IMG/VR virus record: IMGVR_UViG_3300009481_000019
Location: 1-48,411 of that record
Strand: one strand, 5' to 3'
Source: a virus
Taxonomy: Duplodnaviria; Caudoviricetes
Length of the DNA: 48,411 bases
Part shown: positions 1,538 through 42,786 of the stretch, piece by piece
Layout: every line of letters starts with the position of its first letter
How positions within the stretch are numbered: position 1 is the first letter of the stretch
Made by a program: the position numbers and the translations under genes
Notes under the pieces: generated by a model
Database searches by the model: none
What the model was told of the DNA's origin: nothing
Seen by the model: the letters and a program-made list of their open reading frames with translations, nothing else

Positions 1538-2422
1538 TTATTCTCCTTTGAGGATTTTCTGGAGTCCGTAAGGGTAGGTGATCCCCGGCCCCGGCCATTC
1601 GCCTGAGTTACGGCATTCATGGATCTTAACGAGGAGAAGCGTATAAGACTTCATCCCCTCCTGCATTATCTCTGGTTCACAGGTATGGCAAAGAGCCTCG
1701 TAAGGAGGAGACTTCTTGCAAAATATCCAGGCGAACTTGCAACCCGGTTTCGCCAGCCCGGACGCAATTGCCAGGTCGGTATAGAACGCTGCCTGACGAT
1801 GCCATGACCACTGAGCTATTGATCCACCGGGGTTCCATTCACTGATCGTCTTCAGATCATAGATCGTATTAGTAGAGGGATCATAAGCATCGAGCCTTGC
1901 CTTGCAGTTCATGCCCATCATTTCATGGAAGATACTGATCTCAAATTCCATGTGAGGGGATTTAAGGACATCCAGAGCTTCATGCGATGCCATCGCCTGG
2001 ATTTGATGGTAAGAGTCAGCCGGGAGAAGCTCACCACCCATCGCCTCTATCTCCGCCTTATACGCCTTCCAAGCCCCCAGGCTCTTGGAGAACTTGTCAG
2101 AGGGCTTCCGCTTGGCAGCCTTCTGCTCGGCATTGGCTCTGTCGAGGATGCTTCGGTATAGCTTCTCACTTTCGATTGCATACTCGCCTTTGAAGACATC
2201 CGGGGTCAGGACGTATGAATGAAACGCCCTACCGAAGCGAAGCGGATCAGAATCGAATGGCTCGGCGTTACCGAGAACGTGATTGTGATAATACTTTGCC
2301 GGACTACCGGCATCCCGGCGGTTGGGGTCAATGTCACTCAGGCTTGAGCTGTTAATCCCTGGCCGAGCCTGATAGTCGGCAAAAGGCAGATCCCGTAGTA
2401 TGTGTGCGTTGTCTTTACTCAT
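1538..2422 (-). CDS. RecE/exonuclease VIII-like PD-(D/E)XK nuclease (DUF3799-like)
   Basis: INSSSL, FGRAFHSYVL, CKARLD, IYDLKT and HRQAAFY motifs. Confidence 0.85.
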   Translation of the reverse strand: MSKDNAHILRDLPFADYQARPGINSSSLSDIDPNRRDAGSPAKYYHNHVLGNAEPFDSDPLRFGRAFHSYVLTPDVFKGEYAIESEKLYRSILDRANAEQKAAKRKPSDKFSKSLGAWKAYKAEIEAMGGELLPADSYHQIQAMASHEALDVLKSPHMEFEISIFHEMMGMNCKARLDAYDPSTNTIYDLKTISEWNPGGSIAQWSWHRQAAFYTDLAIASGLAKPGCKFAWIFCKKSPPYEALCHTCEPEIMQEGMKSYTLLLVKIHECRNSGEWPGPGITYPYGLQKILKGE

Positions 2423-15650: not shown

Positions 15651-15651
15651 A

Positions 15652-26800: not shown

Positions 26801-29800
26801 CTTTGCCTGTTAGTGTTCGGGACAGCTTCAAGGCAATATCAGATGAAGCCATGCAGTGGAGGCATGGGATGTCTGCTGCCGGTAGCCAGATACTGGTGAC
26901 AGCACTTATGGCTCCGGTGGGGGCTGGCGTTACCATCGGCAGGACAGGACTAATCACAATGCCCAAGACCCTGGGGCGCTGGGGAGGATTCGGCGCTGGC
27001 GTATTACCAAACTTCAGCTACCAACTCAAGGGAGGCATGGAGGACGCTATGGCACATGGCGTTTCGGCAGAGAAGGCATTCAATAAGGCTGCCGGGACAG
27101 CAGCAATAATTTCTCCGGTTGATACGCTCTCGGATTTTATGCTCCTGGGCGGGGGAAAAGTGGTCAAGAAGCTGGTTCCTCAAGCAGCCATCAGGCGAAC
27201 ACAAGCAGATCTGCTGAAATCTATAGGCTTGGCAGGAGGAGTATTCGCTGCCAAGGCAGCCGTGGAAGGCGAGACAGAGAGGCTCCAAACCTACATAGAG
27301 AACTGGAACGCCAAGCACTGGTCGGGGTATGATAAAGATCGGTGGATACATGAGGGAACGGGCATGGCAGCAGCGATAGGCTACGGCTTTGGCGCGATCA
27401 TGTCTGCCCCATCAACGGCATTCCAGGCAATAGAAGCTCGGAAACGGGCTAAGAAATTTATAGAGATCGAGGAGGCAGTGGAAGAGGTGCAGAAGGCTGC
27501 CCAAGGTGGAACTGCTGCCAAGAGGGCATACAACGAGAAGGTAGGGGGCGAGGTGTTTACCGACATAGACTTCTACGACCAGGTTCAAGCACTGAAGGAG
27601 CGCCGGGCTGGACTGCCTATGGAGTTGCTTGGAGTAGATGCCGACACATTGGCTCCCATCCTGGTGGACTCAGGACTATCCCCGGAGGCACAAGACAGTG
27701 TCATCGAGATGATTGCGGAGGGGGATATCGCAGCCCTGGCAGCCTTGGCAATATCCGGGAAGATATCAGCGCCTAGCGCGAAGAGATCCAAGGAAATTGA
27801 TAAGGTTCTGGCAGATACAGGTGAGGTCACAAGGGTTCGGAGTGGGACAGCCCAAGGCATTGTAGAGGGAAGCATATTCCTTGCCCGGGAAGTGGAGAGC
27901 ATCCTTAATACCGGGTCAGCAACTAACGAGGAGGCTGCTGGCATCCTGGTCGAGATCGGGGTCGCACTAGAACAGGCAAACGGTCAACTCAAGATCAACT
28001 CCAAGGCCAGCCAGGTTCTTCCCTCGATAATCGCCGGTAAGGTCGTTGAAGAAGCGAATAAGGCGGCACAAGGAGCGCCAACCTTTGCGGAGCCTTCGCC
28101 AGAGGTCGCAGATCCCCGAGTGGAAGATTTAATCAACGAGGGACGAGACAACCTAAAAAATGCTGCTGAAGAGATCGTCAATGCTCCCCTCCCGGAGAGC
28201 TGGAACGTCACCCTGCAAGACCCGAATAACCCAGATCAATCCTTTCCCATCGTAGTCCAGGCATCCTCACCAGAGGCAGCTCAGGAGATGGCTAACAACA
28301 TGGTTGCACCCGGTGGGGTATTCCCCGGCCATGCCATTCAATCAATAGACCTTATAGAACAAGATGAACGCGACAACATCGAGCGCGATGCCGCCCAACA
28401 GCAGGATCAAGAGATGGGGCTTCCACAAGAGGAGCCTCTCGTTCAGGAAGAAGCTCAAGTCCCCCAAGCGGAGCTGGAAGAAGCTCCAGCAGCATCTCCC
28501 CAGGAGTTACTAGAGGGGGTAGGGACAGCCGTCCAGGAATTTGCCAGAGCCAATGAGGCAATGCTCGGAAGGCATGGGATCAGGGTAGTCCTTGACGGGC
28601 AAGTCCTTGGCCTAAGAGCAGCACCTTTTATTAAACCGGAAACCGGAAGGCCAGCGTATATAAATCATCAAGTCCTTGAGGAGGGCGGGGATCCAGAAGT
28701 CTTAATATACTTAAACTCTGAAGGCATTGCGAGAGGGCTAGAGCAGTATCCCGAAGGCAGAGGTCAGGCAGAAGTCCTCCAGAAGGTTGTCGGGGAAGAG
28801 CTTATCCACGCCTTGGACTATGCGTCCATGCGTGACAAGTGGATTAATGGCGGGAGGCAAGGCACGTTTGAAGAGTTTATTGAAGCCGAGAATCGTTCTG
28901 TTTGGGACGAGATGACAGATGAGGAGCGCCTGGCAGCAGCAACTCCATACGTTGCCGATCCAGCAGGACTGAGGCTAACTGACAATGGAGTCATTACCGC
29001 TTCGGGGACAGAGCTTTCAATTGATCAAGTCGTTAGCGAATATGTGCGACAGCTTGTGCAAACAGAAAGAGAAGGTGCTTCTTCTGAGCTAATTCTTTTA
29101 CAAAAGAAAGGGTTTGGAGAAGCCGTAAGAGAGAGGTTACAATCTATATTTGATTATCTCCGCTCTGCACTTGCAACGGCGACTAAAGAATTGCGTCCAC
29201 TGCTTCGGGAGAGGATGGATGTCATCCAAGGATTACTTACCGGTGTCACAGAAATTACTAGAGAGGAAACGGCTCCTGCTCCTGGCGCTCAAGCTGCTCC
29301 CAGAGGACGAGCTGCTGAACCTGTTGATCCAGGTGGAGAAGGCAGACCAGAAATGGGACGAAGAGCTGGAGCGCCGGAAGCTGCTCCTGGAGACAGGGCT
29401 GAAGGTGTGCTGGGAGACATGGGACTGCCCAGGGAACAAGCTCTTGCGCTTGAGGCTTTCAACATCGGGTTAGCCGAGAAGGGATTACCCCCGGCCACTA
29501 ACGCAACCCTGGATCCACCTCCGGGACTTGAGACATTTGTTGCTGGCTGGGATGCCATCGGGACAGGTCGGCGGATAGTCTTTGTTGATATGCCCATGAA
29601 CGCGAGCGGGGCGGTTCAGCCGGGGCATAACGTAATATTTATTAACAGGCTATCTGAGGCAAGGCTGGACGTTGCAACAGTAGGACATGAGTTTGTTCAC
29701 ACGCTCAAGGAGTCAAGCCCAGAGCTTTACGATGACCTGCTTACGGCCATTAGGAAACTTGCGAAGACAAGAGCATTAAGACTTCCAGACTACATAGAAG

Positions 29801-32800
29801 AGGCATACAAAGGCATCGGTGTAACTGACATTGCCCAGCTAGAAGAAGAAGCCCTCGCAAACCTGGTGGGAGATTTATTCCTAGAGAAGAAGTTCTGGAA
29901 AATCCTTGCCAAAAAGGAGAAGGGGTTATTCAGAAAAATATACAGCAAGTTCATTGAGTATGTCAGCGATGCAGCAAGGCTTTTCACGATGCACTGGGGA
30001 CAGGCTGGATTCGGTCAGATAGAGGAGATGCAACTCCAGGGGAGGGCATTGACCAAGGCACATAACGCCCTGGCAGATGTCATGCTGGCATCCCGGGGAG
30101 CAAAGGCTGCCCTTAAACGTGGCGGGATCAAGTTCGCCCTGGATGACTTCGGGCAGGAATCCTTCTCCAAGAATTGGCCGTTGCCTTCCAATTGGCCAAC
30201 TCCTCCCGGTCAACTTAGGGCTATGCTAAAGGGTAAATTTTCCACCTTGATTGATCAAGGGGGCGTGGATTCCCTGTTGAATGCCCTTAGTGAAGAGCAT
30301 ATTAAAAGTGGGCTTCCCGTTAGGGACTTCTTTGAGTTCGCGGCTACGATCTTGGACGAGATGGGCGAGCATGGGGAAAGCAGGACGGTTAGAGAAGAAA
30401 TTGCCAACCCCCGGTTTAATGCTAAAGCCAAAAGGATAGATCAGAGAATCGAAACAGATCACGCCAGACGGTTACTGCAAGTAGTTCGCCGCCAAGTGGC
30501 AGCAATGACGAACAAGCGAACTCCTGACCGGGTCAACAGAGATGACCTCCCTTGGGTAAGAGCCTTGCTTACTAGAAAAGACCTTCCAGAAGTGCCTTCC
30601 AATCCCTATGATAGTATGAGGGCAGAGGAATATCAGCAACTCCGGGATAAACTTATTGCAGTTGGCGCGAATGAGGAGCTGTCTAAGGCAGCAGAGGCAG
30701 CGCCATCAAATGTCCGAAGCCTGGAGGCTTATGCCCGGTTTGTAATCCGCAACTACGTTAGGACTGTTCACCAGAAGAATCTCCAGGAAGATCAAGGGAA
30801 TACCCGCTTCGCTCTCGATGTAGATGATACCCGTTACATGGATCTGGCCAGGGATCCCAAGAAGAACCGGGCGGAGTTACAGCAGATGGTGGACGCAAGA
30901 GCGAAGGCTGCTGGGTATGATGTCGGCCCCGTGTTTCATGGAGCCGTGGAGGAGTTTTCTGTTTTCAGAACTCGCCCCGACCAAAAGAAATCATTTTCGG
31001 GCATAGGGGAAACATCGCTGGGGGCAATGTTTAGCGAGTCCAAGGAAATTGCGGGATCTTATCCCCTGCACAACCGCAACAACAGGCTCCGAAAAACGCT
31101 ACCGGTTTACTTACGACTCGGCTCCCTAAAAAAGTTTCAATCGCTCAGTGATGTCAGGGAGGATATGATGCAGTTCAACGCCTCAAAAGGAGGCCCCGAA
31201 ATCCCTGCTCCCCAAAGCAGAATTGCCTCATCCCAAAAATATCAAGACCACCTCAAATCGCAAGGGTTTGACGGGATAACCTTTTCCGAGGGGAAGGCCA
31301 GGCAACCCAACAACGCCAGGAAAATAGTCTATGCGGTCTTCGACCCCTCTCAAATCAAATCAGCCGACCCGGTAACCTACGATGATCAGGGTAACGTCAT
31401 CCCGCTCTCACAGAGATTCGATCCCGCCAAGAAGGATACCCGCTTCGCTCTCGATGTTCCAATAGAAGGAGGGCAAACAATTCTCCCCGATGGCGACAGA
31501 ACAATGATACCCGGGACAGTCTTCTTTGCCGGGGGTGGCTTAGTGGAAGTAGGGCTACCCTGGGTTAATTGGGGGGTTGTCGTTGAATACGATCCCGAGC
31601 TGGCAGCCGTTCACAAGAAGGCACACGGAAGCAACCCTACGGTGCAGGATGTCAGAGAGTTTGTTAATAGTTCCAAGAATCTTAACAGAATACCAAAGAA
31701 TGGATACTTCCATGCCAGCCCGGTTTGCAAGGATTTTTCGGTCATCAACCAAAATGTTGCGGAGTCAGACTTGCCCGTCATTACGGCTAAAGCCGTTGCC
31801 AAGGTAATCAGAGAAAGAACCCCAGCTATCTTCACCTTGGAGAACGTAAAGCAATACGCCTTCCCTCCAAAAAAGAAAGGCAAGCCTCAACCAACAGAGG
31901 CGCTGGACATAATTACAAAGGCGCTCGATGAGGGCGGATACGCTTGGCAAGGTCAGGTGTATGATGCTGCTGACTTCGGCGCTCCCACACATCGGAACAG
32001 GTATTTGCTCCGGGCGACCAGGCATGGCGAATTGCCTCCTGTTCCCCAGCCGACTCATGGGCCGACAACGGACACTCCTCATGTTGGATGGTATGATCTT
32101 GTCGAGGATTTGATCGAGGACTTGCCTGATATGTCTTTGGAAAGTCTCAGGAGAGCAAAATACATTTATCGGTCATTTGAAAAACATGAGGGAGGAATAG
32201 ATCCAGAAAACGTCCCAGAGCCGATACTGGTGGCTGGCTCGGCTGTTCATTACAAGGTCAATACCGCAAGACCCAATGAACCCATGTTCACAATTTTGGC
32301 AGACTCCAATGATATACTGCGGATCCTTCTTCCTGGGGGCAGGGTCAAGAAGGTTACTTCTCGCGTTAAGGCCAGGTTGACCGGGTTGCCTGACAGCTAT
32401 CCCCTGCCGTCTGATTCGATAGCAACAGGAGCAGATGCCAAGTGGACTCAGGAAGAAAAGAACTCGGAGAGGACATCCAAGATAATTGTCGGCAACGGCG
32501 TTCCACCGGCATTGGCAGCCGGGGTATTCGGCCCATTGATTCAGCAGGAGATTGCCCGGCGTGGAGAGACTCCCCGCTTCGCCCTGGATGTAGACGATAC
32601 CCGTTACATGGAGTTAGCCAAGGATCCCAAGAAGAACCGGGTGGAGCTACAAAGGATGGTGGATGCGAGGGCGAGGGCGGCATCAGGAATCCAGTTTATC
32701 GACGCAGGGAAAGAGCAGTCGCAGGCACTGGCTAACCAAAAGGAGTTCGACTCAACGCGAAATTACTACGAGCAAAAGTTGTCCACTGAACTCACTAAAG

Positions 32801-35800
32801 AAAAGGAAGCCGAAGCGATAGCAAATGCAAAGCCCAATCAAAAACGATGGGCAGATGAGGGGTTAGACTACGAAGACCCTGCAAGTTTTCTCAAGGGATT
32901 ACGCATGGGGCTGAAAGCCCCATCTTCAGAAGAGAGCATCAAAGCTGAGTATGCAACGGAACGGAGGTCTGCAAAAAGGGAGCTAGAGAAAGCAGAAAAC
33001 CTCTATAAGCGTCGAGGAGGTAAGCAACAGACAACTACTGATTTTAAGACGGGGGTTCCTTTCTACACCAAGGTTTCACACGCTACTCCGTTCGGAAGGA
33101 TCGAATCTTTCGACCCAGATAGGTTGGGGGTATACACAGGTGCGCCATCCGCAGGAAAAGCCTTTTTCTTTGCGGGTTCCAAGGATGTAGCTGAATCATA
33201 CTTCGCGGACGATGCTATCTACCTACCCCACAAAGGCTTTTTAGCTCTGACATCTGAACAACAAGTGGAGTTGGTCGATGCTCTTAGAGCAGAGCGTATG
33301 TCAGTGGACGAATGGAGTGATTCCGAAGTTCAGGATGAAGCACATGAGTTGTTCTCTGATGAAGAATTAGAACATTACGACATCACTCCTTTTGAAAACG
33401 TGCGGCACGATGTGTTCGTGACCCTCCACAACCCTCTGGTAGTAGATCAGGAGGGGGCATATCGAGAGGAGTCTTACTTCGATGCCCTCGTCAGAGCAGA
33501 AGAAGGAGGTCACGATGGGGTCGTTTTTGCCAACACCACAGACTCAGGGCCAGCAAAACCGTTTGGGGCGTGGGACATACCCACCAACGTCATTGCCGTT
33601 CTCGCCAAAGAAGAAGCAACCCACCAAATCAAATCAGCCGACCCGGTAACCTACGATGACCAGGGTAACGTCATCCCCCTGTCCCAAAGGTTTGACCCCG
33701 CTAAGAAGGACATACGCTTCGCCCTGGATGTAGACGATACCCGTTACATGGAGTTGGTTAAAAACGTAGAGTATCTTAGAGCGAGAGTTGCTGATCCTGA
33801 TACTTATTATAGAAACGAAGACGGTTTCGGTTCGCGTGACAACGATGACTATGTTGCCGATAACTTGGAGGAAGAGCTGCAACGCATGGTGGATGCTGCT
33901 GCAAAGGAAGCGGGGTATAATATTGGCCCCGTGTTTCATGGGACAACCCATGACTTCAATGTTTTCTTGAGAGACAGGGGCAATGCAGCAGGGGATTATG
34001 GGCTAGGGTATTATTTAACTTCATCCCGCGAGGATGCAGAGATTAACTATGCGGGAGAAGGGGCAGATTTAACAGCTCGGATTGAGTTGCTGGCAGAAAG
34101 GTATAACTTAGACGAACTGTCAGAAGAAGAGGTTGCGGAATTCGCAGAAGAGCGGGGGATAGACTTGGAGTCTATAAGGGGAGAAGACCTTGATAGTAAG
34201 CTGGAAGAGTTAGCCACCCAGGCAGCAATACGAGAACTGTCCGGTGGAAAAGAAAGGTTAATAACTGCATACGTTCGCTTAAAGAACCCAGCGGTTATCG
34301 GGGGCAGGTTTGATGATCTAGTTTCTTTAGAGCCTTATGATTATTACAATGAAGAGGCGATGGAGGAATACCGACCAGAGGCTGAACGCCTCGTTATGGA
34401 GGAAGAGGGCATTGATAAAGGCGAGTTAAAAAATTACCAAGAAGAAGTTCGTGAAAAGCAGGAACAGTGGGCTGGGGAAACTGGAAATTTTAACGATGAA
34501 CCTCACCCCCTGCTTGAGGCAGTTGATCGTGTCTCTCAAGATTTTATTTATGTTAATCAAGATAAGGTTGAACGTCTTCGAGAGCTTGTTTTTGAGGAAC
34601 CTTATTTACATGAAGTAGATGAAATTTTAAGGGATGTGTTTGATCAAGCGGTAGAAGAGGACACTGGTAACGACATGGCAACAGGGGAAGCTGTCAGGCG
34701 GGTATATGAGGAATTGGGTTATGACGGGATTGTAGACAAAACTGTAAACAAAAAGTTTGGTGAACTGAGGAGGTTTGGCAGACCTATGGGGGGTATTGGG
34801 CGAGATGACTACCATGTTATAGCGTTTGATTCTAGCCAAATCAAATCAGCCGACCCCGCAACCTACGATGACCAGGGTAACGTCATTCCGCTCTCACAGA
34901 GATTTGATCCTGCTAAGAAGGACATACGTTTCGCCCTGGATGTAGAGATTGAAGATAGGTATGACAAATTAGCCGAAAATCCCGATGCAAATCGGGAAGA
35001 GATGCAGAACATAGTCGATGATGTTTCCAAAAAAGCAGAAGAAGATTACTACAGAAAGAAAGAATCGTTTCTTAAAAATTTAGAAAAGGAAGCCAATCGT
35101 GTAGCTGAAAAGAATGAGAGAGAAGCGGAGTCAACTTTAGATAAGTTTGATGACGATGCAGATAAATCATTAGATCGGTTTTTTGATGAGGCAACTTGGG
35201 AGAAATCTACTGAAGACGAGGGGACTGAATTTGAGCAAACATCTTGGACGTTTAATCCAAAACTGAACGGTATACTTAGTGGTGGGCAGTTTTATTTTAA
35301 ACATGGCGACCCCAGAATTTTCAAATCGAAAGATAGCAAAGTATATGATTGGGGGTTTGAGAATTGGGAAAATAGCCTAGAGGGTGCAAAGGAGGCTGTA
35401 GAAAATGAATGGAGAGAACAGGCCGAGGAAATAATTAAGAGGGAGCGTGAATTAGCCTATCAGCCAGATCTTCCCGCTGCGGATGAGAGAAATTTTCCGA
35501 TTATACCTGACGCTGGTGGAATAAAGATAATTAATTCAAGATCCACTAATTCTATATATTTTGAGGGAGAAGATGGTGATGGTTATCCTTTCAAGTTTTC
35601 TATCCGTGATCATGCCCCATCAGTCAGCAGAGAAGCTCAATTTGGACAAGTAAATGAATACTGGACGGTGGATTGGGCTGACGCAAAATCTATCTATGAG
35701 GCGTATGAACAGCTTATACAGGAAATAGAGGCCAATTCTAATTTAGGAAAAAAATATCCTTACTATAGGGATGATGCGGAGTTTTTAATAGATAGGTTTG

Positions 35801-38800
35801 GTCGCCGTCCTGAGATACGCTTTGCCCTGGACGTAGATGAGGGAGCCAAGCTGTCTGCAATCAAAGATCCAACGGCCTTCAGTGAGGCACTGGATCGAGC
35901 GCCAAGGAACGCCATCCTGGGGGCTTACCCGTCAATGCTGTCCGGTGATTGGGATCCCGGCAACATAAACAGTCTGGCTGAAAAGGTGGAGGAAATCCTC
36001 ACGCCCGATTCAGCCCCGGATCACCACCAAGGGAAAGCAGTTTTGGATATGCAGACATCTGCTGCCCAAGCTGTCGCTGGTGTGATTCGGGGCAAAGAAG
36101 ACATTGAGACTTACCGGCAGGTTGTTCAGCTCCGGGACATGATCGACAATTGGGAGAGTCACCCAAGCATAAAGGCGATGGTGGATGACCTGTCCTATGA
36201 CCAGGCTGCGATGAGCGTCATCCCGGCAGCCAAGCGAACCAAGCGCCAGCAAAACTTTATAAACGTGTGGGAGAGGCATAAGTCTAAGCCCAATAGCGCC
36301 TATGCCAAGGCAGCAGCCAAGGCTCTGGAGAAAGACTTCGGGGCAGATTGGAAGCAGATCATTGAGAAAGGAGAGGTGACGGTGGTCAACCCCGGCAAGG
36401 CTACCCGATTCGCCCTGGATGTAGATGATACCCGTTACATCGAATGGGATAAGGGAGAGGCGTATGATAAGTATATGGAGTTGGCTAAAGATCCCGAGGC
36501 CAACCGGGAAGAGCTTGAGGCAATAGTCAATAAACGGGCAAGGCGAAGATTAGCGCAAGGGGGGGAGAGGTTCATACATACCTCTACTGGCAGAAAAGGA
36601 TTTACTGAGTTCAAAGTTCCAGCTTGGTTTGAACCCGCTAGGCAGCCCCTTTACCGGGATGAGATCCTTCCACAGCAGGAAGATTACGATCCCGCAGACC
36701 ATGAAACCCGAGAATTTTATTTGGATGTATGGAATCCAAAAATTGTTTCGCATACCACAATAATGAGTCAGCCATATTCCAATGCTGACCCCAACGCCAC
36801 ACCTCTTACCGAGGAAGACATCCAAGTAGCCAAAGAGCATAATTTAGAACATGATGCAGACAGCCCCTTTGATGGATGGGTTTCTCCAGAAACGGGGCAG
36901 TATGTAATAACGCAACCGTCCCAGGCCAAATCCACTGATGCAGTTACTCGCCACCGAGGGAGAATAGTTCCCCTTGATGAGAGGATGGAGGGGAGGAAGA
37001 AGGATACCCGCTTCGCCCTGGATGTAGAGAAGGACTTCCCGATGTCTTCGCTGAACCTCCTGCATGGAGCAGAGAAGCATCCTAAAACGAGAAAACTTGA
37101 AGCTGCCGGGACGGCTTTACAAAACCTTGCACTGAAAAAGTGGGGACGCATAATAACTAGCCTTGATATTACCGAGGAGGAGAAGCAGGAGATCGTAGAC
37201 AACGGAGTCGAAGAGTTCTTAGCTGCCCTGGAGGCCAGTGGAAAGAACGCAGCCGATTGGTATTCTGTCGCCATCGAGGTGGCGATGGAGGTGGCATCGC
37301 TCATTCACCCGGAGCTAAACAATGCCGAAGCAGCCAGGAAGTCCAAGGGCTTTGCGAATGCTGAAGATCCGGTAAAGGCAGCAAACCTGGTAATGAGGAT
37401 CGCGCTGGCGACCACTTCTCAGAATCTTAATGTTGCCGAGAATGCAAAATATGCAGAAGAGCAATTTGAGATATTTGCGAAGACAGGAAAATTTGATGGG
37501 ATAAGGGGTGAGAAATATGGAGAAAAAGGTCAGGCAATAGGAGGCAACCTGGATCTCGCTAACAAGCTAATTGAAAAGGTTGGCTTTGAGGAGGCTGAAA
37601 GATTTATCCGTCAATCCATGACGGTCAGAGAGCTGGAGGATACGGTCAAGCAGACCCTGGGAATAACCAAGACAATAGAAGGCAAGAAGGACGATCTGGT
37701 AAATGGAGCTGCAATATTTGGGCCGAAGATTGGGCAGGGCTTCCTGCAAAATCTCATGGCGGTCTTTGACCCGGTAACAATAGATCTCTGGCTGAGAAGA
37801 ACCTGGGGGCGCTGGACAGGCAATGTGATGGGAGTTGCCTTCAACGAGGAAAGAACGGCTGGGCTTATTCAAGCAGTAAGGATTGCGAAGAATCCAGAGA
37901 TTAAGTTGCCAGAAAGCTGGCGTGGAATCCGGCTAATCAAAGGCAAGCGTGGAACTGGTGCAGAATACGACACGGTTTCTGAAGAGCTTATCGATAAGAT
38001 AGAGGCAAACCCTGATTTCCGGGACGAGATGCTGACTTCCATTAGGAAGTGGACTAGCTTGTGGAACGCTCAATATAAATTGGTTTCATTCAGCCGACCC
38101 AAGAAAACGGAGAATGCTCCAAATGGCCGACCAGTAACAGAGGAAAGCAAGAGGCTCATCGATGCGTTAAAGCAGCCTAAGAGAGTTAAGGCTAAGTCTT
38201 TGACCAAAGAGCAGAAGATTGCCAGGGGGAAGGTTTGGGACAAAATCTACAAGTCCCAGCAAAAGATGGAGGACGAGGCAAACGATGCCTGGGACAATCT
38301 TAGCAAAGAGGAGAAAGCGATTGCGAAAGAAGAATGGCCTACCCAAACCAAAGGGCATTGGCGGGATAACTATTTCCGAGAGAACGGGCATAAAGTAGAT
38401 CTGGAGGCTACGGACATCGGCAAGATTAAACCAGAGTGGGCATATTCAGTTAATCAGATCAACGCTAATGCGTCCACGATTGATATACCGGCAGCAGCAG
38501 ATCGCCGGGTAATTACCGAGATCATAAACAGAATAGGCGATAGAGTCAGGGAGCTTGGGTATGAGACTACGAATGCTGACATTCAAGCTATTTTGTGGTA
38601 TCCAGAAAAGGATCTTTGGGCTAAGATGTCCGGCAAAGACGAGAGCAATCTCAAGTCTTCGTATGACGAAGAATTTAAACGAATAGCAATAGATAAAAAG
38701 TATGACAAAGCAAAAGTCGAACGAGTCGCAGAAAAAGCCGAGCGAGAAGCAAGAGAAAATAGAGCCTCACGAACTGGCGGGAAGCCTGACAGAGGAGCAA

Positions 38801-41800
38801 CGCGACAAGTTCGTGGACGGCCTGATAAAGCTGATGGCCAAAAAGCGAAAAGAGCAGGAAAGACTCGATTCGCCCTAGACGTTGATCCTCCTCAATTCTC
38901 CTTAGATCCCGGCCAATCGGCTGAGATATACAGGGTTAAGCGCCAGGCTCTAGAGGATGCCAGGAACAAGCGTTCCACTATCCAGAAGGCCACAAAGAGC
39001 CTGGAGAAGGCGGCAAGGACGGCAGTTCAAGAGCCTGGATATTTAATTCGCAAGGGTATCCAAGGCAAGTATGACCTCATGGATACCATGAGCGCCCGGC
39101 AAGGTGGATCTGGTGAAGCCGGTCAGGCGTTGCGAAGGGGAGAGCTTAATCAATCACTGGGTGAGTCAGCGATAAACCAATACGCACAACGACTAAGCAG
39201 GGAGCTGAAGAACCTCCTGGGGATATCTGCATGGAGATTCATTGCCCGGAAGAAGAGGCTCAACAAGTTCAGCAGGGATCTGCACACTGTCGCTGCCAGG
39301 CTCAACGCTGTCGCATACAACCCGGATGGCTCGTTTGCATTTGAGGGCTTCGATCAGCGTGTGGGCTTCATGGAAGAGAACGAGGCTCACGCAATGGGCC
39401 TTGGCGATGGGGGATATGTTAACATCCAAAAAAGAGTATTGCAGCTCCAGTGGAATCAGGACAAGGAGGGATACATCCTCCTGGAACGCTACACTGCCGA
39501 GGAGCAGCAGATGTTCTATAATGAGTTTATGCAGGAGTATCCAGATCTTGGGATATTCCTCAACAGGTGGATCGCCCCCGGCATGGAGAACGCCAGGCAC
39601 GTTGGCCCACAAGGCGTGGAGACTCCGGTCTTTAACCGCTACTCCTTACACAATTTCTATTCGGGGACAGTCTACGGAGATCCCGGCCAGCTTCCGGGAT
39701 ACACACCGGACGTAGTTCAACGCACAATTATTGGCGGGATGCTCTGGGGTATCGCAAGAGCAGCTACAGGCAAGCTCCCAGGCAAGAGGTTTGGATTCCT
39801 GGCAGGGAAGAAAAGCTCGGCAAGGACTGTCAAGACAGGGGCAGCCCGAGAGCAGGGCTTCTCTATGGACATGATCAAGGGCTTTAATGTCCGGGCGATG
39901 GAGGCTCACATGGAGGACATTCGGCGGAACCAGGCGCTCGATCTGATTAGGTCTGCAACTAAGCCCGTTCCAGCGAACAATGTTGTTCCCGAGCATCATA
40001 TCAGGGTGGACAAGGTTGCAATGAATCAATTGTTGCGGGGGTTGGTGGAAACCCTTGGCAAGAAGTCAGCGGAGGGGCTGGCTCTGAATGAGCTTTGGAA
40101 TAAGGCTGTAGAGAATAAAGACCCAAGCCATGTTTTGCTTGATGAGTCTCAGCGCAAGTTCAGCCAAAGGGAGAAGGCCATCGTTGAGTTCCTGTTTGGT
40201 GACGAGAGGGCGATAGACCTCCTGGGGAGTGACCGCATGATGGACAGGGTTAACTGGGAGCAGTTGACTAACAACATGGCTGACCGGGCATATAACAACT
40301 GGTGGCTTGGCCTTTTGGCGCAGCAAGTCGGGGAATACACCGCCACGTTATTGGTCGGCCCTGCGACAATAGCATTTAACTGGCTGGCTCCACAAATCCA
40401 AGCAATCACTGCCGGGATGCATCGATTACTGAGGAGCTTCTTTTACGCTGCTTCTCTAAAGAGAGAGAATTGGAACCGAGCTGAGATTGAACTCCGGGCG
40501 GGTCTGGAGACTTTGCTGGGATTGCTTACCAGAAGGGTTACCGGGTGGGAAGGGATTAATATGTTCCTGCCGGGCGCTGACAAGGTCAGGGGGTCACTTA
40601 CTCAGGAAGATCACGCAAAGGGAACCTTGGGACTAATCAAAGAGGGTCAGGTAGGCAAGGCCATCAAGAGGGCTACGGATCGTCATAGGGCATACGGCGA
40701 GTTTGTCCCAAGGGAATTGTTTGATGACACGGCTCTGATGACAGCACTTCAGGCCGGTGAGACAGGAACTGATTCAGTGCTTCAGAATTTGATGAACCTC
40801 AAGCCGGGGACAGCAATACTCCAAGCGGTGAAGTTCTCAGAGATGGATACAACCGTTAAGCAGAACCTGGTATATTCAGCCTACAAGGCTCATGCAGCCG
40901 TGGCAGCCAGGAAGGCTAAAGTTCCCAAGACTCAGCGCAAGGCATGGATACAAGATTACATGAGGCGGATCTCCAAGGAGAACCCGAATATCCATAAGGA
41001 GGCCTTTGATACCGCAATGCTGTTTGCGTTCGACTACAGCAATGTCCCGCTGCTCTTCAGCGCGAAGGACAAGAGCCAAGGGGGCAAGATCCTCCTCAGA
41101 GGATTGGCGATGTTCTCCGGGTTCATATACAACTACGCCAAGTTGCTTTATACGTTGTCTCCTGTTGGCTGGGGAACAAAAATGGCAAAGCCAATTATTG
41201 GCAAAGGCAAGAAGGATGCCCTGGGAGGAAGCGAAGCTCGTAACGCTATGGCATCCGCTGCCATGTTTGCAATGGGGATGATGCTGTTCTCAGAGGATGA
41301 TGAACCGGAGGACGAGGACGAGGAAACCAAGCGCAAGAAGCGGTATGCTCCAAATCTATTCGGGACAAGCTGGACAAAATGGGGCGATGAAATAGAAGCC
41401 TGGTGGACTGCTACTGGCGGGAAGATATCTATCGATGCCCTGGATGAGATGTTCGGGACAAGCGTTGCCAACTCGATAAGGGCTTACCTTGAAGCTAACG
41501 GCGCTTCAGATGCCGAGGGCATGGAGATATGGTTGAGAGGCAGATCGCTTCCTTATGTGCAATACATGGGGGCATTCGCCACTCTCGGGCAAACAATACA
41601 AGGAAAGCGTGAGGCTCCCCAGGCGCTTGGTGAAATTGGCGAGATGGTTGGAGACTTCCTGCCGTCCGGGCCGTTACAGACAATTTTCGGGGTTGAGAAT
41701 AAATACAACAGGTCAACGCCCCACCTTTACCGGGTAGCCGACATTGGCTATGACTTGGTATCGTCCAGGCTTATCCCCCCTCCTTTACGCAAGGCTGCGA

Positions 41801-42786
41801 CAAGCTACGTTGACCCGGTAATGAGGCGGAAGTCACCCAGCGAAAGCCTGGGAACAGACTACACATTATTGGATCACATAAAGAGATCCACTCCAGGCCT
41901 GTCCACTCAAATCCCACCGGCAGCCACCGTCAATAGTTTCAAGCTCAAGCCGGGTCAGGAGATGACCGAGGCACAAGCTGCTGACATTGCCAAGTTGATG
42001 GAGATGGACTTGCAGCCGGAAACGGTGCTAAGTAAGACTGTCGATGAGTTCGGCAATACAACCATTGCCTATGTTGATCCCGACCAAATCAAGATAAAGA
42101 GCAAGGGAGAATGGTATCTCCACTTCTTTGCCCGGACACAAGGCATTGACAAGGTAGAGCGTGTGCTGGCTTACTACGATCTCACCAAGGAGGAGATAGA
42201 AAAAATTGAGGCGAAGAACGAGGAGAATAAGAAGCGAATTGATCGAGGGCAAACTGTTGCGGAGAAGTATATGCTCACCGAGAAAGAGCGCATCCAGTTA
42301 AAGTCCTGGCAAGCCTACAAAGAGGGCAAGGATTTTGCTCTCTTGATGGAGCAATACATGGAAAGGGATGAAGCCATCCTGCCTGACTTAATCAACCCAT
42401 CCACCAGGCAGATAGGAGAAGGGGGCGAGGAGAAACAACTCCGGCCTAACTGGTCTAACGCTGAATACAACAAGCTCCTTAGAGCGGTTGTGAAGCGACA
42501 GCCAAGGAACACATTTGGCAAGATGATTGATCCCAATACCGGCAACGAGCTGGATATGGATACCCCAAGAGCCATAGATCTTGGCCATATATCCGGCAGG
42601 GCATGGAAGGACATTGCCAATGATCCTAAGTATCGAGGGCTAACCCCCAAGGAAATTGCAAAGCTGGAGCTGAATCCAGAATACTATGTCCTGGAGGAAT
42701 CTTGGCACAATCGCAAAATGGGAAAAGAGTCAGCCAGGAAGGCAATCTACAAGAAGGAGCTGCCGGAGGGGGCGCTTAAACCCTAG
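23860..42786 (+). CDS. giant (6308 aa) polyvalent virion/ejection-type protein with an internal enzyme cassette array
   Basis: Uninterrupted 18.9-kb ORF; Gly/Ala hydrophobic segments, zincin motifs, ART-like x4, C5 MTase, HhH-like and GH-E-like domains. Confidence 0.9.
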   Translation: MANGQNPFKRQGQPPGNPPKGDAPYYPTKEEMEAASQRPLGTPSPWSRQNRRKWDAERKLQQQKAAEQREINRVNARQDKANADALADAKAQFIRQQGVDPKDVDRIDVDPQGGLRMLLKRKFLRHEIDKDTGETQAIFRNKNNQEERHNVLNKAGKPIKDAGLKLDRSTGHQYVDIEGTRHIVRKNLALKEYYDYKAKENKARREEQDALDVQGDLEESLDRANTEIKATEKWLSDIAKRKQKPGDIELVDEKKKELEALTKDRDRIYEQHKGATTDYRKKRSAHSRLEDNPVQYRTAIDFPRYSAIAPPSDGEDEETVGARGSLGIQGDAYESEDPPIQVEGTSLKVDPYEGYYKSEITIPGGYTQHFYIPKMAGKKMAHTAKDRVSYNKVVKEELRKGTPAREAHNKALKKYPMTLTGKDGRKAELERLENEYAKLEKEWEEFTRKTDPATGVPEQAQSSIQQAQEIQGRLNQVKEELDAARRMASSRPALAARAGLPAGTLTDPRIRLHAIGEAARSETSAVDKAIAIRKRLIEAIDISDSEGKQRLKNLQDGLRSLEARKESIATTLNADIYKRLGPVDGATLSVPIQTKYDAINALKADEGEKKDLKNQAEAHEYTMIVREMSAGVDNHPGRREALLHLLKGYRGADPNVLNNKALKDIGKSGLPWNEKRSNLEYALEKLSGTGALKHVDQDLNKQELIAIGHHLSRLGVKGVPEVVMRREFEEISQEALEDFGNKRGNELWPSTGGLVLEDGEWKQRRKDVGGLYLPLSPMRSVEWQGELALKKAESHRPPVIEPNSAEELASWVQENIIPFRHVFKSGHQKWAEANRTTFEDEGTAWKKIVYDKESNAGYYFRYKPQSKGQVMQFKVDQELGDVTNPGKVIDWTIPKGVHKAPGQLGEKMLSHVSENLGVAAPWMSMETLKSATSRFARDTIKVVNSMGYGASLTAAKVWGDPGAMEAVMAVQRKNDEQLDEALPVSVRDSFKAISDEAMQWRHGMSAAGSQILVTALMAPVGAGVTIGRTGLITMPKTLGRWGGFGAGVLPNFSYQLKGGMEDAMAHGVSAEKAFNKAAGTAAIISPVDTLSDFMLLGGGKVVKKLVPQAAIRRTQADLLKSIGLAGGVFAAKAAVEGETERLQTYIENWNAKHWSGYDKDRWIHEGTGMAAAIGYGFGAIMSAPSTAFQAIEARKRAKKFIEIEEAVEEVQKAAQGGTAAKRAYNEKVGGEVFTDIDFYDQVQALKERRAGLPMELLGVDADTLAPILVDSGLSPEAQDSVIEMIAEGDIAALAALAISGKISAPSAKRSKEIDKVLADTGEVTRVRSGTAQGIVEGSIFLAREVESILNTGSATNEEAAGILVEIGVALEQANGQLKINSKASQVLPSIIAGKVVEEANKAAQGAPTFAEPSPEVADPRVEDLINEGRDNLKNAAEEIVNAPLPESWNVTLQDPNNPDQSFPIVVQASSPEAAQEMANNMVAPGGVFPGHAIQSIDLIEQDERDNIERDAAQQQDQEMGLPQEEPLVQEEAQVPQAELEEAPAASPQELLEGVGTAVQEFARANEAMLGRHGIRVVLDGQVLGLRAAPFIKPETGRPAYINHQVLEEGGDPEVLIYLNSEGIARGLEQYPEGRGQAEVLQKVVGEELIHALDYASMRDKWINGGRQGTFEEFIEAENRSVWDEMTDEERLAAATPYVADPAGLRLTDNGVITASGTELSIDQVVSEYVRQLVQTEREGASSELILLQKKGFGEAVRERLQSIFDYLRSALATATKELRPLLRERMDVIQGLLTGVTEITREETAPAPGAQAAPRGRAAEPVDPGGEGRPEMGRRAGAPEAAPGDRAEGVLGDMGLPREQALALEAFNIGLAEKGLPPATNATLDPPPGLETFVAGWDAIGTGRRIVFVDMPMNASGAVQPGHNVIFINRLSEARLDVATVGHEFVHTLKESSPELYDDLLTAIRKLAKTRALRLPDYIEEAYKGIGVTDIAQLEEEALANLVGDLFLEKKFWKILAKKEKGLFRKIYSKFIEYVSDAARLFTMHWGQAGFGQIEEMQLQGRALTKAHNALADVMLASRGAKAALKRGGIKFALDDFGQESFSKNWPLPSNWPTPPGQLRAMLKGKFSTLIDQGGVDSLLNALSEEHIKSGLPVRDFFEFAATILDEMGEHGESRTVREEIANPRFNAKAKRIDQRIETDHARRLLQVVRRQVAAMTNKRTPDRVNRDDLPWVRALLTRKDLPEVPSNPYDSMRAEEYQQLRDKLIAVGANEELSKAAEAAPSNVRSLEAYARFVIRNYVRTVHQKNLQEDQGNTRFALDVDDTRYMDLARDPKKNRAELQQMVDARAKAAGYDVGPVFHGAVEEFSVFRTRPDQKKSFSGIGETSLGAMFSESKEIAGSYPLHNRNNRLRKTLPVYLRLGSLKKFQSLSDVREDMMQFNASKGGPEIPAPQSRIASSQKYQDHLKSQGFDGITFSEGKARQPNNARKIVYAVFDPSQIKSADPVTYDDQGNVIPLSQRFDPAKKDTRFALDVPIEGGQTILPDGDRTMIPGTVFFAGGGLVEVGLPWVNWGVVVEYDPELAAVHKKAHGSNPTVQDVREFVNSSKNLNRIPKNGYFHASPVCKDFSVINQNVAESDLPVITAKAVAKVIRERTPAIFTLENVKQYAFPPKKKGKPQPTEALDIITKALDEGGYAWQGQVYDAADFGAPTHRNRYLLRATRHGELPPVPQPTHGPTTDTPHVGWYDLVEDLIEDLPDMSLESLRRAKYIYRSFEKHEGGIDPENVPEPILVAGSAVHYKVNTARPNEPMFTILADSNDILRILLPGGRVKKVTSRVKARLTGLPDSYPLPSDSIATGADAKWTQEEKNSERTSKIIVGNGVPPALAAGVFGPLIQQEIARRGETPRFALDVDDTRYMELAKDPKKNRVELQRMVDARARAASGIQFIDAGKEQSQALANQKEFDSTRNYYEQKLSTELTKEKEAEAIANAKPNQKRWADEGLDYEDPASFLKGLRMGLKAPSSEESIKAEYATERRSAKRELEKAENLYKRRGGKQQTTTDFKTGVPFYTKVSHATPFGRIESFDPDRLGVYTGAPSAGKAFFFAGSKDVAESYFADDAIYLPHKGFLALTSEQQVELVDALRAERMSVDEWSDSEVQDEAHELFSDEELEHYDITPFENVRHDVFVTLHNPLVVDQEGAYREESYFDALVRAEEGGHDGVVFANTTDSGPAKPFGAWDIPTNVIAVLAKEEATHQIKSADPVTYDDQGNVIPLSQRFDPAKKDIRFALDVDDTRYMELVKNVEYLRARVADPDTYYRNEDGFGSRDNDDYVADNLEEELQRMVDAAAKEAGYNIGPVFHGTTHDFNVFLRDRGNAAGDYGLGYYLTSSREDAEINYAGEGADLTARIELLAERYNLDELSEEEVAEFAEERGIDLESIRGEDLDSKLEELATQAAIRELSGGKERLITAYVRLKNPAVIGGRFDDLVSLEPYDYYNEEAMEEYRPEAERLVMEEEGIDKGELKNYQEEVREKQEQWAGETGNFNDEPHPLLEAVDRVSQDFIYVNQDKVERLRELVFEEPYLHEVDEILRDVFDQAVEEDTGNDMATGEAVRRVYEELGYDGIVDKTVNKKFGELRRFGRPMGGIGRDDYHVIAFDSSQIKSADPATYDDQGNVIPLSQRFDPAKKDIRFALDVEIEDRYDKLAENPDANREEMQNIVDDVSKKAEEDYYRKKESFLKNLEKEANRVAEKNEREAESTLDKFDDDADKSLDRFFDEATWEKSTEDEGTEFEQTSWTFNPKLNGILSGGQFYFKHGDPRIFKSKDSKVYDWGFENWENSLEGAKEAVENEWREQAEEIIKRERELAYQPDLPAADERNFPIIPDAGGIKIINSRSTNSIYFEGEDGDGYPFKFSIRDHAPSVSREAQFGQVNEYWTVDWADAKSIYEAYEQLIQEIEANSNLGKKYPYYRDDAEFLIDRFGRRPEIRFALDVDEGAKLSAIKDPTAFSEALDRAPRNAILGAYPSMLSGDWDPGNINSLAEKVEEILTPDSAPDHHQGKAVLDMQTSAAQAVAGVIRGKEDIETYRQVVQLRDMIDNWESHPSIKAMVDDLSYDQAAMSVIPAAKRTKRQQNFINVWERHKSKPNSAYAKAAAKALEKDFGADWKQIIEKGEVTVVNPGKATRFALDVDDTRYIEWDKGEAYDKYMELAKDPEANREELEAIVNKRARRRLAQGGERFIHTSTGRKGFTEFKVPAWFEPARQPLYRDEILPQQEDYDPADHETREFYLDVWNPKIVSHTTIMSQPYSNADPNATPLTEEDIQVAKEHNLEHDADSPFDGWVSPETGQYVITQPSQAKSTDAVTRHRGRIVPLDERMEGRKKDTRFALDVEKDFPMSSLNLLHGAEKHPKTRKLEAAGTALQNLALKKWGRIITSLDITEEEKQEIVDNGVEEFLAALEASGKNAADWYSVAIEVAMEVASLIHPELNNAEAARKSKGFANAEDPVKAANLVMRIALATTSQNLNVAENAKYAEEQFEIFAKTGKFDGIRGEKYGEKGQAIGGNLDLANKLIEKVGFEEAERFIRQSMTVRELEDTVKQTLGITKTIEGKKDDLVNGAAIFGPKIGQGFLQNLMAVFDPVTIDLWLRRTWGRWTGNVMGVAFNEERTAGLIQAVRIAKNPEIKLPESWRGIRLIKGKRGTGAEYDTVSEELIDKIEANPDFRDEMLTSIRKWTSLWNAQYKLVSFSRPKKTENAPNGRPVTEESKRLIDALKQPKRVKAKSLTKEQKIARGKVWDKIYKSQQKMEDEANDAWDNLSKEEKAIAKEEWPTQTKGHWRDNYFRENGHKVDLEATDIGKIKPEWAYSVNQINANASTIDIPAAADRRVITEIINRIGDRVRELGYETTNADIQAILWYPEKDLWAKMSGKDESNLKSSYDEEFKRIAIDKKYDKAKVERVAEKAEREARENRASRTGGKPDRGATRQVRGRPDKADGQKAKRAGKTRFALDVDPPQFSLDPGQSAEIYRVKRQALEDARNKRSTIQKATKSLEKAARTAVQEPGYLIRKGIQGKYDLMDTMSARQGGSGEAGQALRRGELNQSLGESAINQYAQRLSRELKNLLGISAWRFIARKKRLNKFSRDLHTVAARLNAVAYNPDGSFAFEGFDQRVGFMEENEAHAMGLGDGGYVNIQKRVLQLQWNQDKEGYILLERYTAEEQQMFYNEFMQEYPDLGIFLNRWIAPGMENARHVGPQGVETPVFNRYSLHNFYSGTVYGDPGQLPGYTPDVVQRTIIGGMLWGIARAATGKLPGKRFGFLAGKKSSARTVKTGAAREQGFSMDMIKGFNVRAMEAHMEDIRRNQALDLIRSATKPVPANNVVPEHHIRVDKVAMNQLLRGLVETLGKKSAEGLALNELWNKAVENKDPSHVLLDESQRKFSQREKAIVEFLFGDERAIDLLGSDRMMDRVNWEQLTNNMADRAYNNWWLGLLAQQVGEYTATLLVGPATIAFNWLAPQIQAITAGMHRLLRSFFYAASLKRENWNRAEIELRAGLETLLGLLTRRVTGWEGINMFLPGADKVRGSLTQEDHAKGTLGLIKEGQVGKAIKRATDRHRAYGEFVPRELFDDTALMTALQAGETGTDSVLQNLMNLKPGTAILQAVKFSEMDTTVKQNLVYSAYKAHAAVAARKAKVPKTQRKAWIQDYMRRISKENPNIHKEAFDTAMLFAFDYSNVPLLFSAKDKSQGGKILLRGLAMFSGFIYNYAKLLYTLSPVGWGTKMAKPIIGKGKKDALGGSEARNAMASAAMFAMGMMLFSEDDEPEDEDEETKRKKRYAPNLFGTSWTKWGDEIEAWWTATGGKISIDALDEMFGTSVANSIRAYLEANGASDAEGMEIWLRGRSLPYVQYMGAFATLGQTIQGKREAPQALGEIGEMVGDFLPSGPLQTIFGVENKYNRSTPHLYRVADIGYDLVSSRLIPPPLRKAATSYVDPVMRRKSPSESLGTDYTLLDHIKRSTPGLSTQIPPAATVNSFKLKPGQEMTEAQAADIAKLMEMDLQPETVLSKTVDEFGNTTIAYVDPDQIKIKSKGEWYLHFFARTQGIDKVERVLAYYDLTKEEIEKIEAKNEENKKRIDRGQTVAEKYMLTEKERIQLKSWQAYKEGKDFALLMEQYMERDEAILPDLINPSTRQIGEGGEEKQLRPNWSNAEYNKLLRAVVKRQPRNTFGKMIDPNTGNELDMDTPRAIDLGHISGRAWKDIANDPKYRGLTPKEIAKLELNPEYYVLEESWHNRKMGKESARKAIYKKELPEGALKP
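28795..29880 (+). other. two zincin-like metallopeptidase motifs within the giant protein
   Basis: EELIH (28795-28809, degenerate) and HEFVH (29686-29700) followed by EEEALA. Confidence 0.65.
30805..31440 (+). other. cassette 2: ADP-ribosyltransferase-like (ART-PolyVal type) domain
   Basis: VFHG..F..F, GAMFSES..A.SY, VYL, GFDGI, VFDPSQIKSA. Confidence 0.7.
31441..32574 (+). other. cassette 3: C5 DNA methyltransferase domain
   Basis: FFAGGG (I), EYD (II), HASPVCKDFS (IV), ENV (VI), THRNRY (VIII), ARLTGLPDSY (IX), GNGVPP (X). Confidence 0.9.
32575..33714 (+). other. cassette 4: ART-like domain with insertions
   Basis: SHAT..SFDP, AFFFAG..VAESY, VFVTLHNP, GHDGVVF, QIKSA. Confidence 0.65.
33715..34926 (+). 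other. cassette 5: ART-like domain with large acidic insertions
   Basis: VFHGT..FNVF, YGLGYYLTSS..A..NYA, AYVRLKNP, LGYDGI, AFDSSQIKSA. Confidence 0.75.
36406..37008 (+). other. cassette 8: divergent ART-like domain
   Basis: FIHTS..FTEF, WF, FYLDVWNP, FDGW, YVITQPSQAKS. Confidence 0.5.
37009..38865 (+). other. cassette 9: HhH-GPD/EndoIII-like DNA glycosylase-related domain
   Basis: ADWY, ATTSQN..V..N, FGPKIG..F..NL, VTIDLW, DIQAILWY. Confidence 0.55.
42439..42730 (+). other. C-terminal GH-E-like HNH/EndoVII nuclease domain
   Basis: IDPNTG...IDLGH..G..W....LT.KE....NPEYY.LE....NR. Confidence 0.7.

Follow-up and report, generated by a model that had tools for sequence, protein, structure and literature searches.

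Polyvalent proteins of phages are giant multidomain polypeptides for which Iyer et al. 2017 proposed autoproteolysis by an embedded zincin and drew an analogy to the polyproteins of RNA viruses (PMC5512222). We compare with them a 6308-residue protein encoded by IMGVR_UViG_3300009481_000019, a Caudoviricetes (Duplodnaviria) contig analysed here over its positions 1 to 48,411 (hereafter, the window), in which the hexapeptide RFALDV recurs nine times between enzyme domains. The protein resembles those of the 2017 survey in its size and multidomain build and in the presence of an ADP-ribosyltransferase (ART) of the ART-PolyVal family, a DNA methyltransferase, a zincin and, in relatives, LPD5 and LPD1, and differs from them in that the methylases described there are of the adenine N6 type whereas the one here is a C5 methyltransferase (PMC5512222). 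In the main text of that paper, from which the supplements may differ, the strings 'linker', 'shuffl' and 'boundar' do not occur, no repeated site is named and no exchange of internal cassettes at one motif is described, recombination with downstream cassettes being raised for a kinase system only (PMC5512222). Autoproteolysis and the polyprotein analogy, to which the idea of a phage polyprotein in an earlier note on this DNA corresponds, had thus already been proposed, and the new elements are the repeated site and the cassette exchange at that site. No description of such a repeated tag, or of exchange at it, was found in a literature search that mostly left subscription papers outside.

The gp47 protein of phi24B, an LPD5/LPD1 polyvalent protein, has been detected in virions; its likeness to the protein analysed here (virion association in phi24B; LPD5, LPD1 and zincin) is at the family level, and the available text of that report assigns the peptidase to peptidoglycan and mentions no processing (bioRxiv 10.64898/2026.04.10.717836). 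In its LPD1 region, P0003, a relative of our protein, has about 50% identity to the giant proteins of Stx-converting podoviruses, which differ in their length (about 2300-2800 residues), their few cassettes and a looser motif. In CdiA (VENN) and Rhs (DPxGL), too, a short conserved peptide marks the start of variable effector cassettes, and recombination at the VENN-coding DNA has been proposed (PMC3150448); cleavage after VENN has been shown for CdiA (PMC9424206). CdiA and Rhs carry one C-terminal toxin, silent orphan cassettes and immunity genes, whereas the window has nine internal cassettes, all in frame and followed by a conserved scaffold, and no immunity genes were seen. Because the cassettes are internal, many and all translated, this is not a polymorphic toxin of the CdiA/Rhs type. 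In T4 gp21, phiKZ gp175 and RNA-virus polyproteins, one protease recognizes one short repeated consensus and releases many products. In contrast to the T4 and phiKZ head-protease systems, neither the capsid protein nor the portal protein of the window has the motif, and the enzyme proposed to cut is itself part of the substrate, a zincin. A DarB-like methylase-helicase antirestriction protein was considered and rejected, given that the methylase is of the C5 and not the N6-adenine type and that there is no SF2 helicase match (no helicase family matched any of 12 segments of the giant protein).

The giant protein consists of an N-terminal scaffold (amino acids (aa) 1-2090), nine cassettes (W1 to W9 in order; Table 1) and a C-terminal scaffold (aa 5003-6308, 1306 aa). 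RFALDV occurs at aa 2316, 2528, 2906, 3286, 3690, 3987, 4183, 4384 and 5003, that is, in nine copies compared to 0.0004 expected from composition; KFALDD precedes these at aa 2091, and QFSLDP follows at aa 5012, nine residues past the last copy. All of these lie in one stop-free frame, and the positions and the segment lengths (225, 212, 378, 380, 404, 297, 196, 201 and 619 aa) agree exactly with the earlier note. Its placement of the motif at domain boundaries also holds: all domain matches fall between two motifs, none crosses a motif, homologous cassettes align end to end and the motif was not found inside folded domains. The polypeptide joins disparate domains (four ART-like domains, a C5 methyltransferase, a predicted helix-hairpin-helix (HhH) fold, a zincin-like domain and GH-E), PF18760 exceeds its cut-off twice, LPD5 and LPD1 are present in the relatives P0003, P0007 and P0008, and the phage is of the terminase-portal type (portal PF23899, capsid PF13252, terminase phrog_24361). 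As judged from sequence, the gene is a phage polyvalent protein by those criteria of Iyer et al. 2017 that can be tested. A repeated consensus in the linkers between independent domains, as in a self-processing polyprotein, is present as well, with exceptions. The protein is probably a virion protein, given its family membership and gene context, and, if phi24B gp47 is a guide, it would be packaged and enter the host together with the DNA.

Relatives of the protein combine one scaffold with different sets of cassettes. Identity to the C-terminal scaffold of the window is 94% in P0003, 61% in L002 and 36-43% in P0004-P0008. In P0003, the motif, counted together with close variants, occurs ten times; this protein shares W3 (83%), W7 (98%) and W9 (98.7%), with other cassettes between them and without W1 and W6. 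In L002, QFALDP occurs six times, and W7 (57%) stands before W3 (73%), the opposite of the order in the window, along with three other segments; P0004-P0008 have six copies each of x[FY][AS][LI]D[PE]. Alignments of shared cassettes begin at residue 1-2 and stop no more than about 15 residues short of the cassette end. Thus, as the earlier note had anticipated, the domain order is not fixed, and each homologue has a uniform motif variant of its own with a different cassette set and order; all copies switch jointly between lineages, RFALDV in one and QFALDP in the other. At 55 sites in 8 proteins, the core is nearly invariant ([FY] 55, A 54, [LI] 55, D 55), which is partly built in because the sites were chosen by pattern and by eye. 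QFSLDP behind the last RFALDV looks, from its sequence, like the remnant of an older, L002-type junction. A scan of viral contigs for the motif combined with the ART leader pattern gave 0 matches.

To characterize exchange between cassettes, contigs from 8 of the 24 listed sequencing runs, namely X1-X6, X9 and X12, were compared with the array. The four long joints, whose shorter side has 255 letters, are all located no more than 22 nucleotides (nt) from a motif start. In run X2, W5 is joined to W7 (34923>35815), with exactly the 891 nt of W6 missing and 0 and 10 other letters flanking, and W3 is joined to a W5-like cassette, skipping W4 (32574>33715); a contig of X4 joins W2 to W7 (31425>35815), and a contig of X5 has 736 other letters in place of W8 (36428>37009). 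Overall, the interval from −25 to +30 nt around motif starts, in which 5.6% of ends are expected, contains 24 of the 38 joint ends and, among the 38 loose ends listed out of 74, 16; short-sided joints overstate this statistic. Since repeats draw alignment ends and the ends are not independent, the case for exchange is based on the four long joints together with the proteins. Among the latter, P0010 matches the window at 396 of 409 residues to just past KFALDDFGQ and at 6 of 100 thereafter, where it enters an LPD5-type cassette; relatives with a scaffold that is largely 90-99% identical lack, replace or reorder whole cassettes at the motif. Some junctions lie 9-26 nt past the motif or within the leader and tail repeats of the ART cassettes (57-118 nt, 79-85% alike), which add homology. 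The motif is a recombination anchor, and we hold with high confidence that cassettes are exchanged at the motif DNA, a trait shared with polymorphic toxins, in which a conserved peptide-coding junction is likewise the site of exchange. The array shows a phage population refreshing its presumed injected enzymes, with whole domains swapped among near-identical genomes. It is not an assembly artefact, because contigs of run X1, 99+% alike to the window, bridge 8 of the 10 motif copies (pieces listed); X1 is probably the source sample and hence no biologically independent confirmation.

The motif is conserved as a peptide. The nine RFALDV copies differ from their consensus at 13 positions (8 distinct differences), all synonymous (p = 3.5 × 10−5), and the copies of L002 at 10 (7 distinct), again all synonymous (p = 4.7 × 10−5); all of these differences are in third positions (13/13 and 10/10), while the flanking residues vary. 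At the same time, the copies are more similar as DNA than the codon usage of the gene predicts (15.5 vs. 13.3 of 18, p = 5 × 10−5; for L002, p = 0.006), and the arginine of the motif is encoded by CGN in 9 of 9 copies, whereas AGR accounts for 53% elsewhere in the gene. Since the changes are synonymous only and the DNA is homogenized, the copies appear to have spread by copying or recombination and yet to be held at the peptide level. The codon variants are thus as the earlier note described them, and its conclusion of purifying selection on the peptide stands; that selection acts on the peptide alone does not, the DNA copies being homogenized and exchanged as well. The codon pattern makes it very probable that the peptide is functional at the amino-acid level. 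Translation restart was considered as a DNA-level signal and rejected: the ATG-TAG overlap noticed by eye in some copies occurs neither in L002 nor in the copies with GAC or GTT.

The candidate processing enzyme is the zincin-like domain immediately upstream of the array, which has 455 relatives at E ≤ 0.001 and an intact HExxH in 148 of the 154 examined; in alignment A6, both histidines, the glutamate between them and a later glutamate are conserved. The structure model (predicted local distance difference test (pLDDT) 79) has a three-strand sheet and the HExxH helix, and its last helix ends four residues before KFALDD. No HExxH other than HEFVH was found in the window, and family scans of its open reading frames (ORFs) detected no recognised head protease. 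We favour, with some confidence, the motif as a cleavage site; if cleavage occurs, it is quite probably performed by the protein's own zincin. The giant protein would be head cargo ejected at infection, as its family and phi24B gp47 suggest, and the zincin would cleave the copy at the end of its own domain before the remaining ones, either inside the head or once in the cell, with the scissile bond before or after the motif phenylalanine. A cut before it would make every product start with an N-end-rule residue. Once released, the ARTs, the C5 methyltransferase and the enzyme with the glycosylase fold could modify host proteins, or could modify or protect DNA, during the first minutes of infection. 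The motif copies (18-24 nt), aided by the ART leader and tail repeats, could mediate shuffling of the array through short-homology recombination, which would keep the frame and spread a single variant through a lineage; the RecE-like exonuclease VIII of the window is a possible source of this recombination. For the entire chain, from an exchangeable in-frame array through a zincin-cut tag to enzymes freed after delivery with the phage DNA, we see the chances as evenly balanced. The best-scoring fold neighbour of the zincin (Z only 5.4) is PprI/IrrE bound to single-stranded DNA, with ArdC also listed; a DNA-triggered protease, if that is what the domain is, would time cleavage to ejection.

Several observations count against cleavage at the motif by this zincin. 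Multi-domain segments without a motif exist, namely, c7 of P0003 (W7 plus about 190 aa), c1 of L002 (1940 aa) and c4 of P0004-P0008 (951-1127 aa), and the C-terminal GH-E domain is not set off by a motif either. Matches to the zincin fold are weak (best Z 5.4, root-mean-square deviation (rmsd) 4.0, 97 aligned residues), although the neighbours are mostly zincins, and Foldseek gave no match at E ≤ 0.001; in Pfam, DUF6782 is below its cut-off (E = 0.0027). The low pLDDT (<50) of the coil at the motifs flanking W9 coincides with a lack of alignment cover and is, for that reason, only partly informative. Finally, the zincins of N4 vRNAP, ArdC and TraC1 do not lead to processing, the first protein being packaged intact and the other two transferred at full length, whereas P1 DdrB is processed (PMC5512222), so that cleavage is not to be assumed.

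The fate of N4 vRNAP, which is packaged uncut although its zincin region is required for encapsidation (PMC5512222), fits a different function of the tag. The F-A-L-D strands could dock, uncut, to a repeated site on the portal, core, a chaperone or the scaffold, such that modules are packed unfolded or fed singly through the tail, cassette exchange being a by-product. Purifying selection on the peptide is expected in this case, too, the alternating hydrophobic pattern suits a binding strand, and non-catalytic zincin folds are among the fold neighbours of the domain. Nevertheless, we consider docking unlikely in view of the retention of the catalytic HExxH in 148 of 154 relatives, the irregular spacing of the motifs (125-1940 aa) and the position of the first copy at the end of the zincin domain.

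Homogenization of the DNA copies beyond codon usage in two lineages, their joint switch between RFALDV and QFALDP, the mapping of exchanges to the repeat and the existence of motif-free junctions would all be compatible with a recombination anchor and nothing else, that is, an in-frame DNA repeat copied with the cassettes, whose peptide is a tolerated linker kept constant by recent copying and linker constraints. We regard this as distinctly improbable, because all 13 and all 10 differences are synonymous third-position changes amid variable flanks and because the aromatic-small core survives at 36-43% scaffold identity and in cultured phages. Returning to cleavage, the site might serve a host protease, periplasmic or cytoplasmic, or another zincin such as one associated with LPD1: CdiA is cut after VENN within the target cell (PMC9424206), and the relatives hold a second HExxH in their LPD5-LPD1 cassette. 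However, the sharpest motif is that of the window, which has no LPD1 and a single HExxH, and flank changes throughout a lineage would be more easily reconciled with a phage-encoded enzyme, so that a protease other than the protein's own zincin seems to us a poor candidate. An integron- or shufflon-like system, in which a dedicated recombinase recognizes the 18-24 nt repeat, would explain junctions that are precise to a few bases, and a trans-acting enzyme is conceivable, but it is extremely unlikely: no inverted symmetry or inverted repeat is listed at the motif, variation follows the genetic code, some junctions map 9-26 nt past the motif or to the repeats of the ART leaders and tails, and the 45 scanned ORFs include no integrase (best, a weak helix-turn-helix match to the DNA invertase family, E = 5 × 10−4).

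We also analyzed 148 proteins chosen by zincin likeness alone. The pattern [RKQ][FY][SA][RKLIVM], which was not chosen blind, is 2.3-fold enriched in their middle region (59 vs. 25.6 expected), whereas the counts upstream (70 vs. 69.9) and in the C-terminal 800 aa (68 vs. 68.6) are as expected; this counts in favour of the proposed processing site. A word of the [FY]S type is present at +134 to +162 from the HExxH in 42 of 121 proteins (about 18 expected; the interval was picked after looking). In cultured phages TL-2011c and Y11, YSR or FSR directly follows LPD1, and in TL-2011c, YSR also follows the second zincin; the aromatic-small core thus persists in cultured phages as well as in proteins with scaffolds only 36-43% identical. 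By eye, 16 of 18 cases show an aromatic residue in the same register after the ART tail, as do 9 of 18 by a strict pattern; this could also be the conserved end of that domain. Homologues of W9 (16 of 31 were used; short, late-starting and duplicate ones were dropped) are preceded elsewhere by other repeated words, e.g. VGTSFG, QFMP and PTLSV, which indicates that the tag belongs to the carrier protein and not to the cargo. The pooled repeat test on these homologues was significant, with 32 vs. 20.8, 22 vs. 4.3 ± 1.9 and 23 vs. 6.5 for three word settings; an unanchored de novo repeat search remained at the shuffle level.

A general grammar, in which a lineage-private aromatic-small tag is read by an embedded zincin and its DNA is the recombination anchor (a "protein-level integron"), is a tentative extrapolation from these results that we think somewhat doubtful. 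It is opposed, as is the cleavage reading itself, by the lack of enrichment of the FAL form in the distant proteins (22 vs. 32.8), by the absence of the [FY]S-type word at +134 to +162 from 79 of the 121, by the finding that no 6-mer family exceeds 2 copies in 101 of 122, as in shuffles, and at least 4 repeat copies occur in only 7 of 122 (five of these being P0004-P0008), and by the repeat test on single W9 homologues (0 of 16 at p ≤ 0.05). If true, capture between two tags would suffice to place a domain in frame and to have it packaged, delivered and released by cutting, and the missing cleavage site would be supplied for the metallopeptidases of polyvalent proteins, among them the ones encoded by cultured phi24B-like phages. 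In P0011-P0158, a further peak of [FY]S words (31 counts) lies at +120 to +129 from the HExxH, just ahead of the first-motif interval, and P0111 and P0122 contain an AMR-type repeat.

For the window itself, an invariant nine-fold site beside an intact zincin makes the 2017 processing proposal testable with one domain and one peptide. The tag is also a rule for splitting such proteins in silico, which exposes W1, W6 and W7 as candidate anti-defence modules, and a compact protease with a short strict site, if it is one, might serve as a reagent.

Table 1 Positions of the giant polyvalent protein, its parts and other phage genes in the window.
Feature	Position	Strand	Remarks
RecE-like exonuclease VIII	1538..2422	-	phrog_412 E 5e-48, PF12684
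Terminase (probable)	6065-7798	-	phrog_24361 E 9e-7
Major capsid protein	8909..10390	+	PF13252; no RFALDV motif copy
Giant polyvalent protein, 6308 aa	23860..42786	+	one stop-free frame
EELIH, degenerate HExxH-like word, aa 1646	28795..28809	+	zincin-like context, about 300 aa before the intact zincin
Zincin-like metallopeptidase domain	29500..30120	+	HEFVH at aa 1943 (nt 29686-29700), downstream EEEALAN
First motif copy, KFALDD	30130..30147	+	four residues past the last helix of the zincin model
W1, 225 aa, no assigned family	30130..30804	+	relatives carry an LPD5-LPD1 cassette at the same place
W2, 212 aa, ADP-ribosyltransferase ART-PolyVal, RFALDV start	30805..31440	+	PF18760 E 2e-13
W3, 378 aa, C5 cytosine methyltransferase, RFALDV start	31441..32574	+	PF00145 E 3e-20
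W4, 380 aa, ART-like, large inserts, RFALDV start	32575..33714	+	PF18760 E 0.0019, below cut-off
W5, 404 aa, ART-PolyVal, acidic inserts, RFALDV start	33715..34926	+	PF18760 E 1e-12
W6, 297 aa, GC 0.40, RFALDV start	34927..35817	+	opens with the helical leader of ART cassettes
W7, 196 aa, RFALDV start	35818..36405	+	common to all seven relatives examined
W8, 201 aa, divergent ART-like, RFALDV start	36406..37008	+	BLAST only
W9, 619 aa, predicted HhH DNA-glycosylase superfamily fold, RFALDV start	37009..38865	+	structure model
Last RFALDV, then QFSLDP nine residues on	38866..38910	+	QFSLDP resembles the QFALDP junction of the L002 lineage
GH-E (HNH/EndoVII-like) C-terminal domain	42517..42714	+	PF14410 E 1e-4, below cut-off; above cut-off in P0003
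SU10-like portal protein	45729..47846	+	PF23899 E 1e-25; context podovirus-like

Among the cassettes, the ART identity of W2 and W5 and the C5 methyltransferase identity of W3, all proposed in the earlier note, are above the family cut-off, whereas its ART calls for W4 and W8 fall below the cut-off and on BLAST only, respectively; W8 matches W2 at E = 3 × 10−11 and is 41% identical to c6 of P0003. The leader of W8 is duplicated (36424-36462, + strand): after the DDTRY start come 12 additional residues and another YMELAKDP, as would result from recombination between two leaders. W3 is 83% identical end to end to c4 of P0003 and 73% to c4 of L002. W1, W6 and W7 matched no family in domain searches; homologues of W6 were sought in the length range of 163-520 aa only, and none was found, while W7 is 98% identical to its counterpart in P0003, 57% in L002 and 38-43% in P0004-P0008 and has a first Atlas match of 0.79, to be taken as a lead only. 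The guanine-plus-cytosine (GC) content of the cassettes ranges from 0.40 (W6) to 0.55 (W7), compared to 0.52-0.53 in the scaffold.

The HhH-like nature of W9, suggested in the earlier note, is borne out by its structure model (built with flanks from 26 sequences, pLDDT 76), from which an HhH-GPD fold is predicted. Its best match is 3n0u (Z 9.3, rmsd 4.4, 200 aligned residues); six chains have Z of at least 8, and 22 of the top 23 rows are glycosylases of the HhH type or a related queuine-salvage enzyme, the remaining one being a phage base-modifying transferase. The domain spans model residues 82-624, with the flanking motifs in coil at 37-42 and 656-661. Foldseek of the model found no match, and sequence searches of the PDB with W9 and with alignments A5 and A6 gave nothing meaningful. 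W9 is 98.7% identical to c9 of P0003 and has 32 relatives in viral contigs; in L032, L035-L038, L042-L047, L049 and L051, its homologue is a C-terminal domain and not an internal cassette. The last cassette of L002 (L002:7939-9450) is DUF7178 (E = 3 × 10−17), and W9, in the same last position, has a faint DUF7178 match and Atlas neighbours with DUF7178; by sequence, both may be distant HhH relatives. The 1940-aa segment of L002 (L002:19-5838) has an ASCH-like start, 44% identical to c8 of P0003, and a long acidic repetitive middle without a family match.

Within the scaffold, the degenerate word EELIH, found among the compared proteins only in the near-identical P0010, is possibly a second, altered zincin. 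A hydrophobicity scan yielded a single weak segment, and a membrane channel was discarded as unsupported. The GH-E domain, which has no preceding motif, is retained in P0003 and, by alignment, in L002. Searches of viral contigs with the zincin region confirmed none, the protein of the window being the only hit among giants of 3469-11039 aa; tblastn of the zincin, the capsid protein and W2 against cultured phages gave no match, nor did the C-terminal scaffold find a relative in the genome_contigs set, a search that might have pointed to a host.

According to library scans of its ORFs, the window, a phage contig of 48.4 kb, encodes DnaB and a RecE-like exonuclease in addition to a capsid protein, an SU10-like portal and a probable terminase; the RFALDV motif occurs in no other real ORF of the window, and no terminal repeat was found at the contig ends. 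The terminase lies on the − strand, opposite to the capsid gene (+), and replication genes (14525-17019) are placed between the capsid gene and the giant gene. In addition to cassette W3, a second, stand-alone C5 cytosine methyltransferase is encoded at 2987-4216 on the − strand (PF00145, E = 7 × 10−30); one of the two could act in replication and the other at entry.

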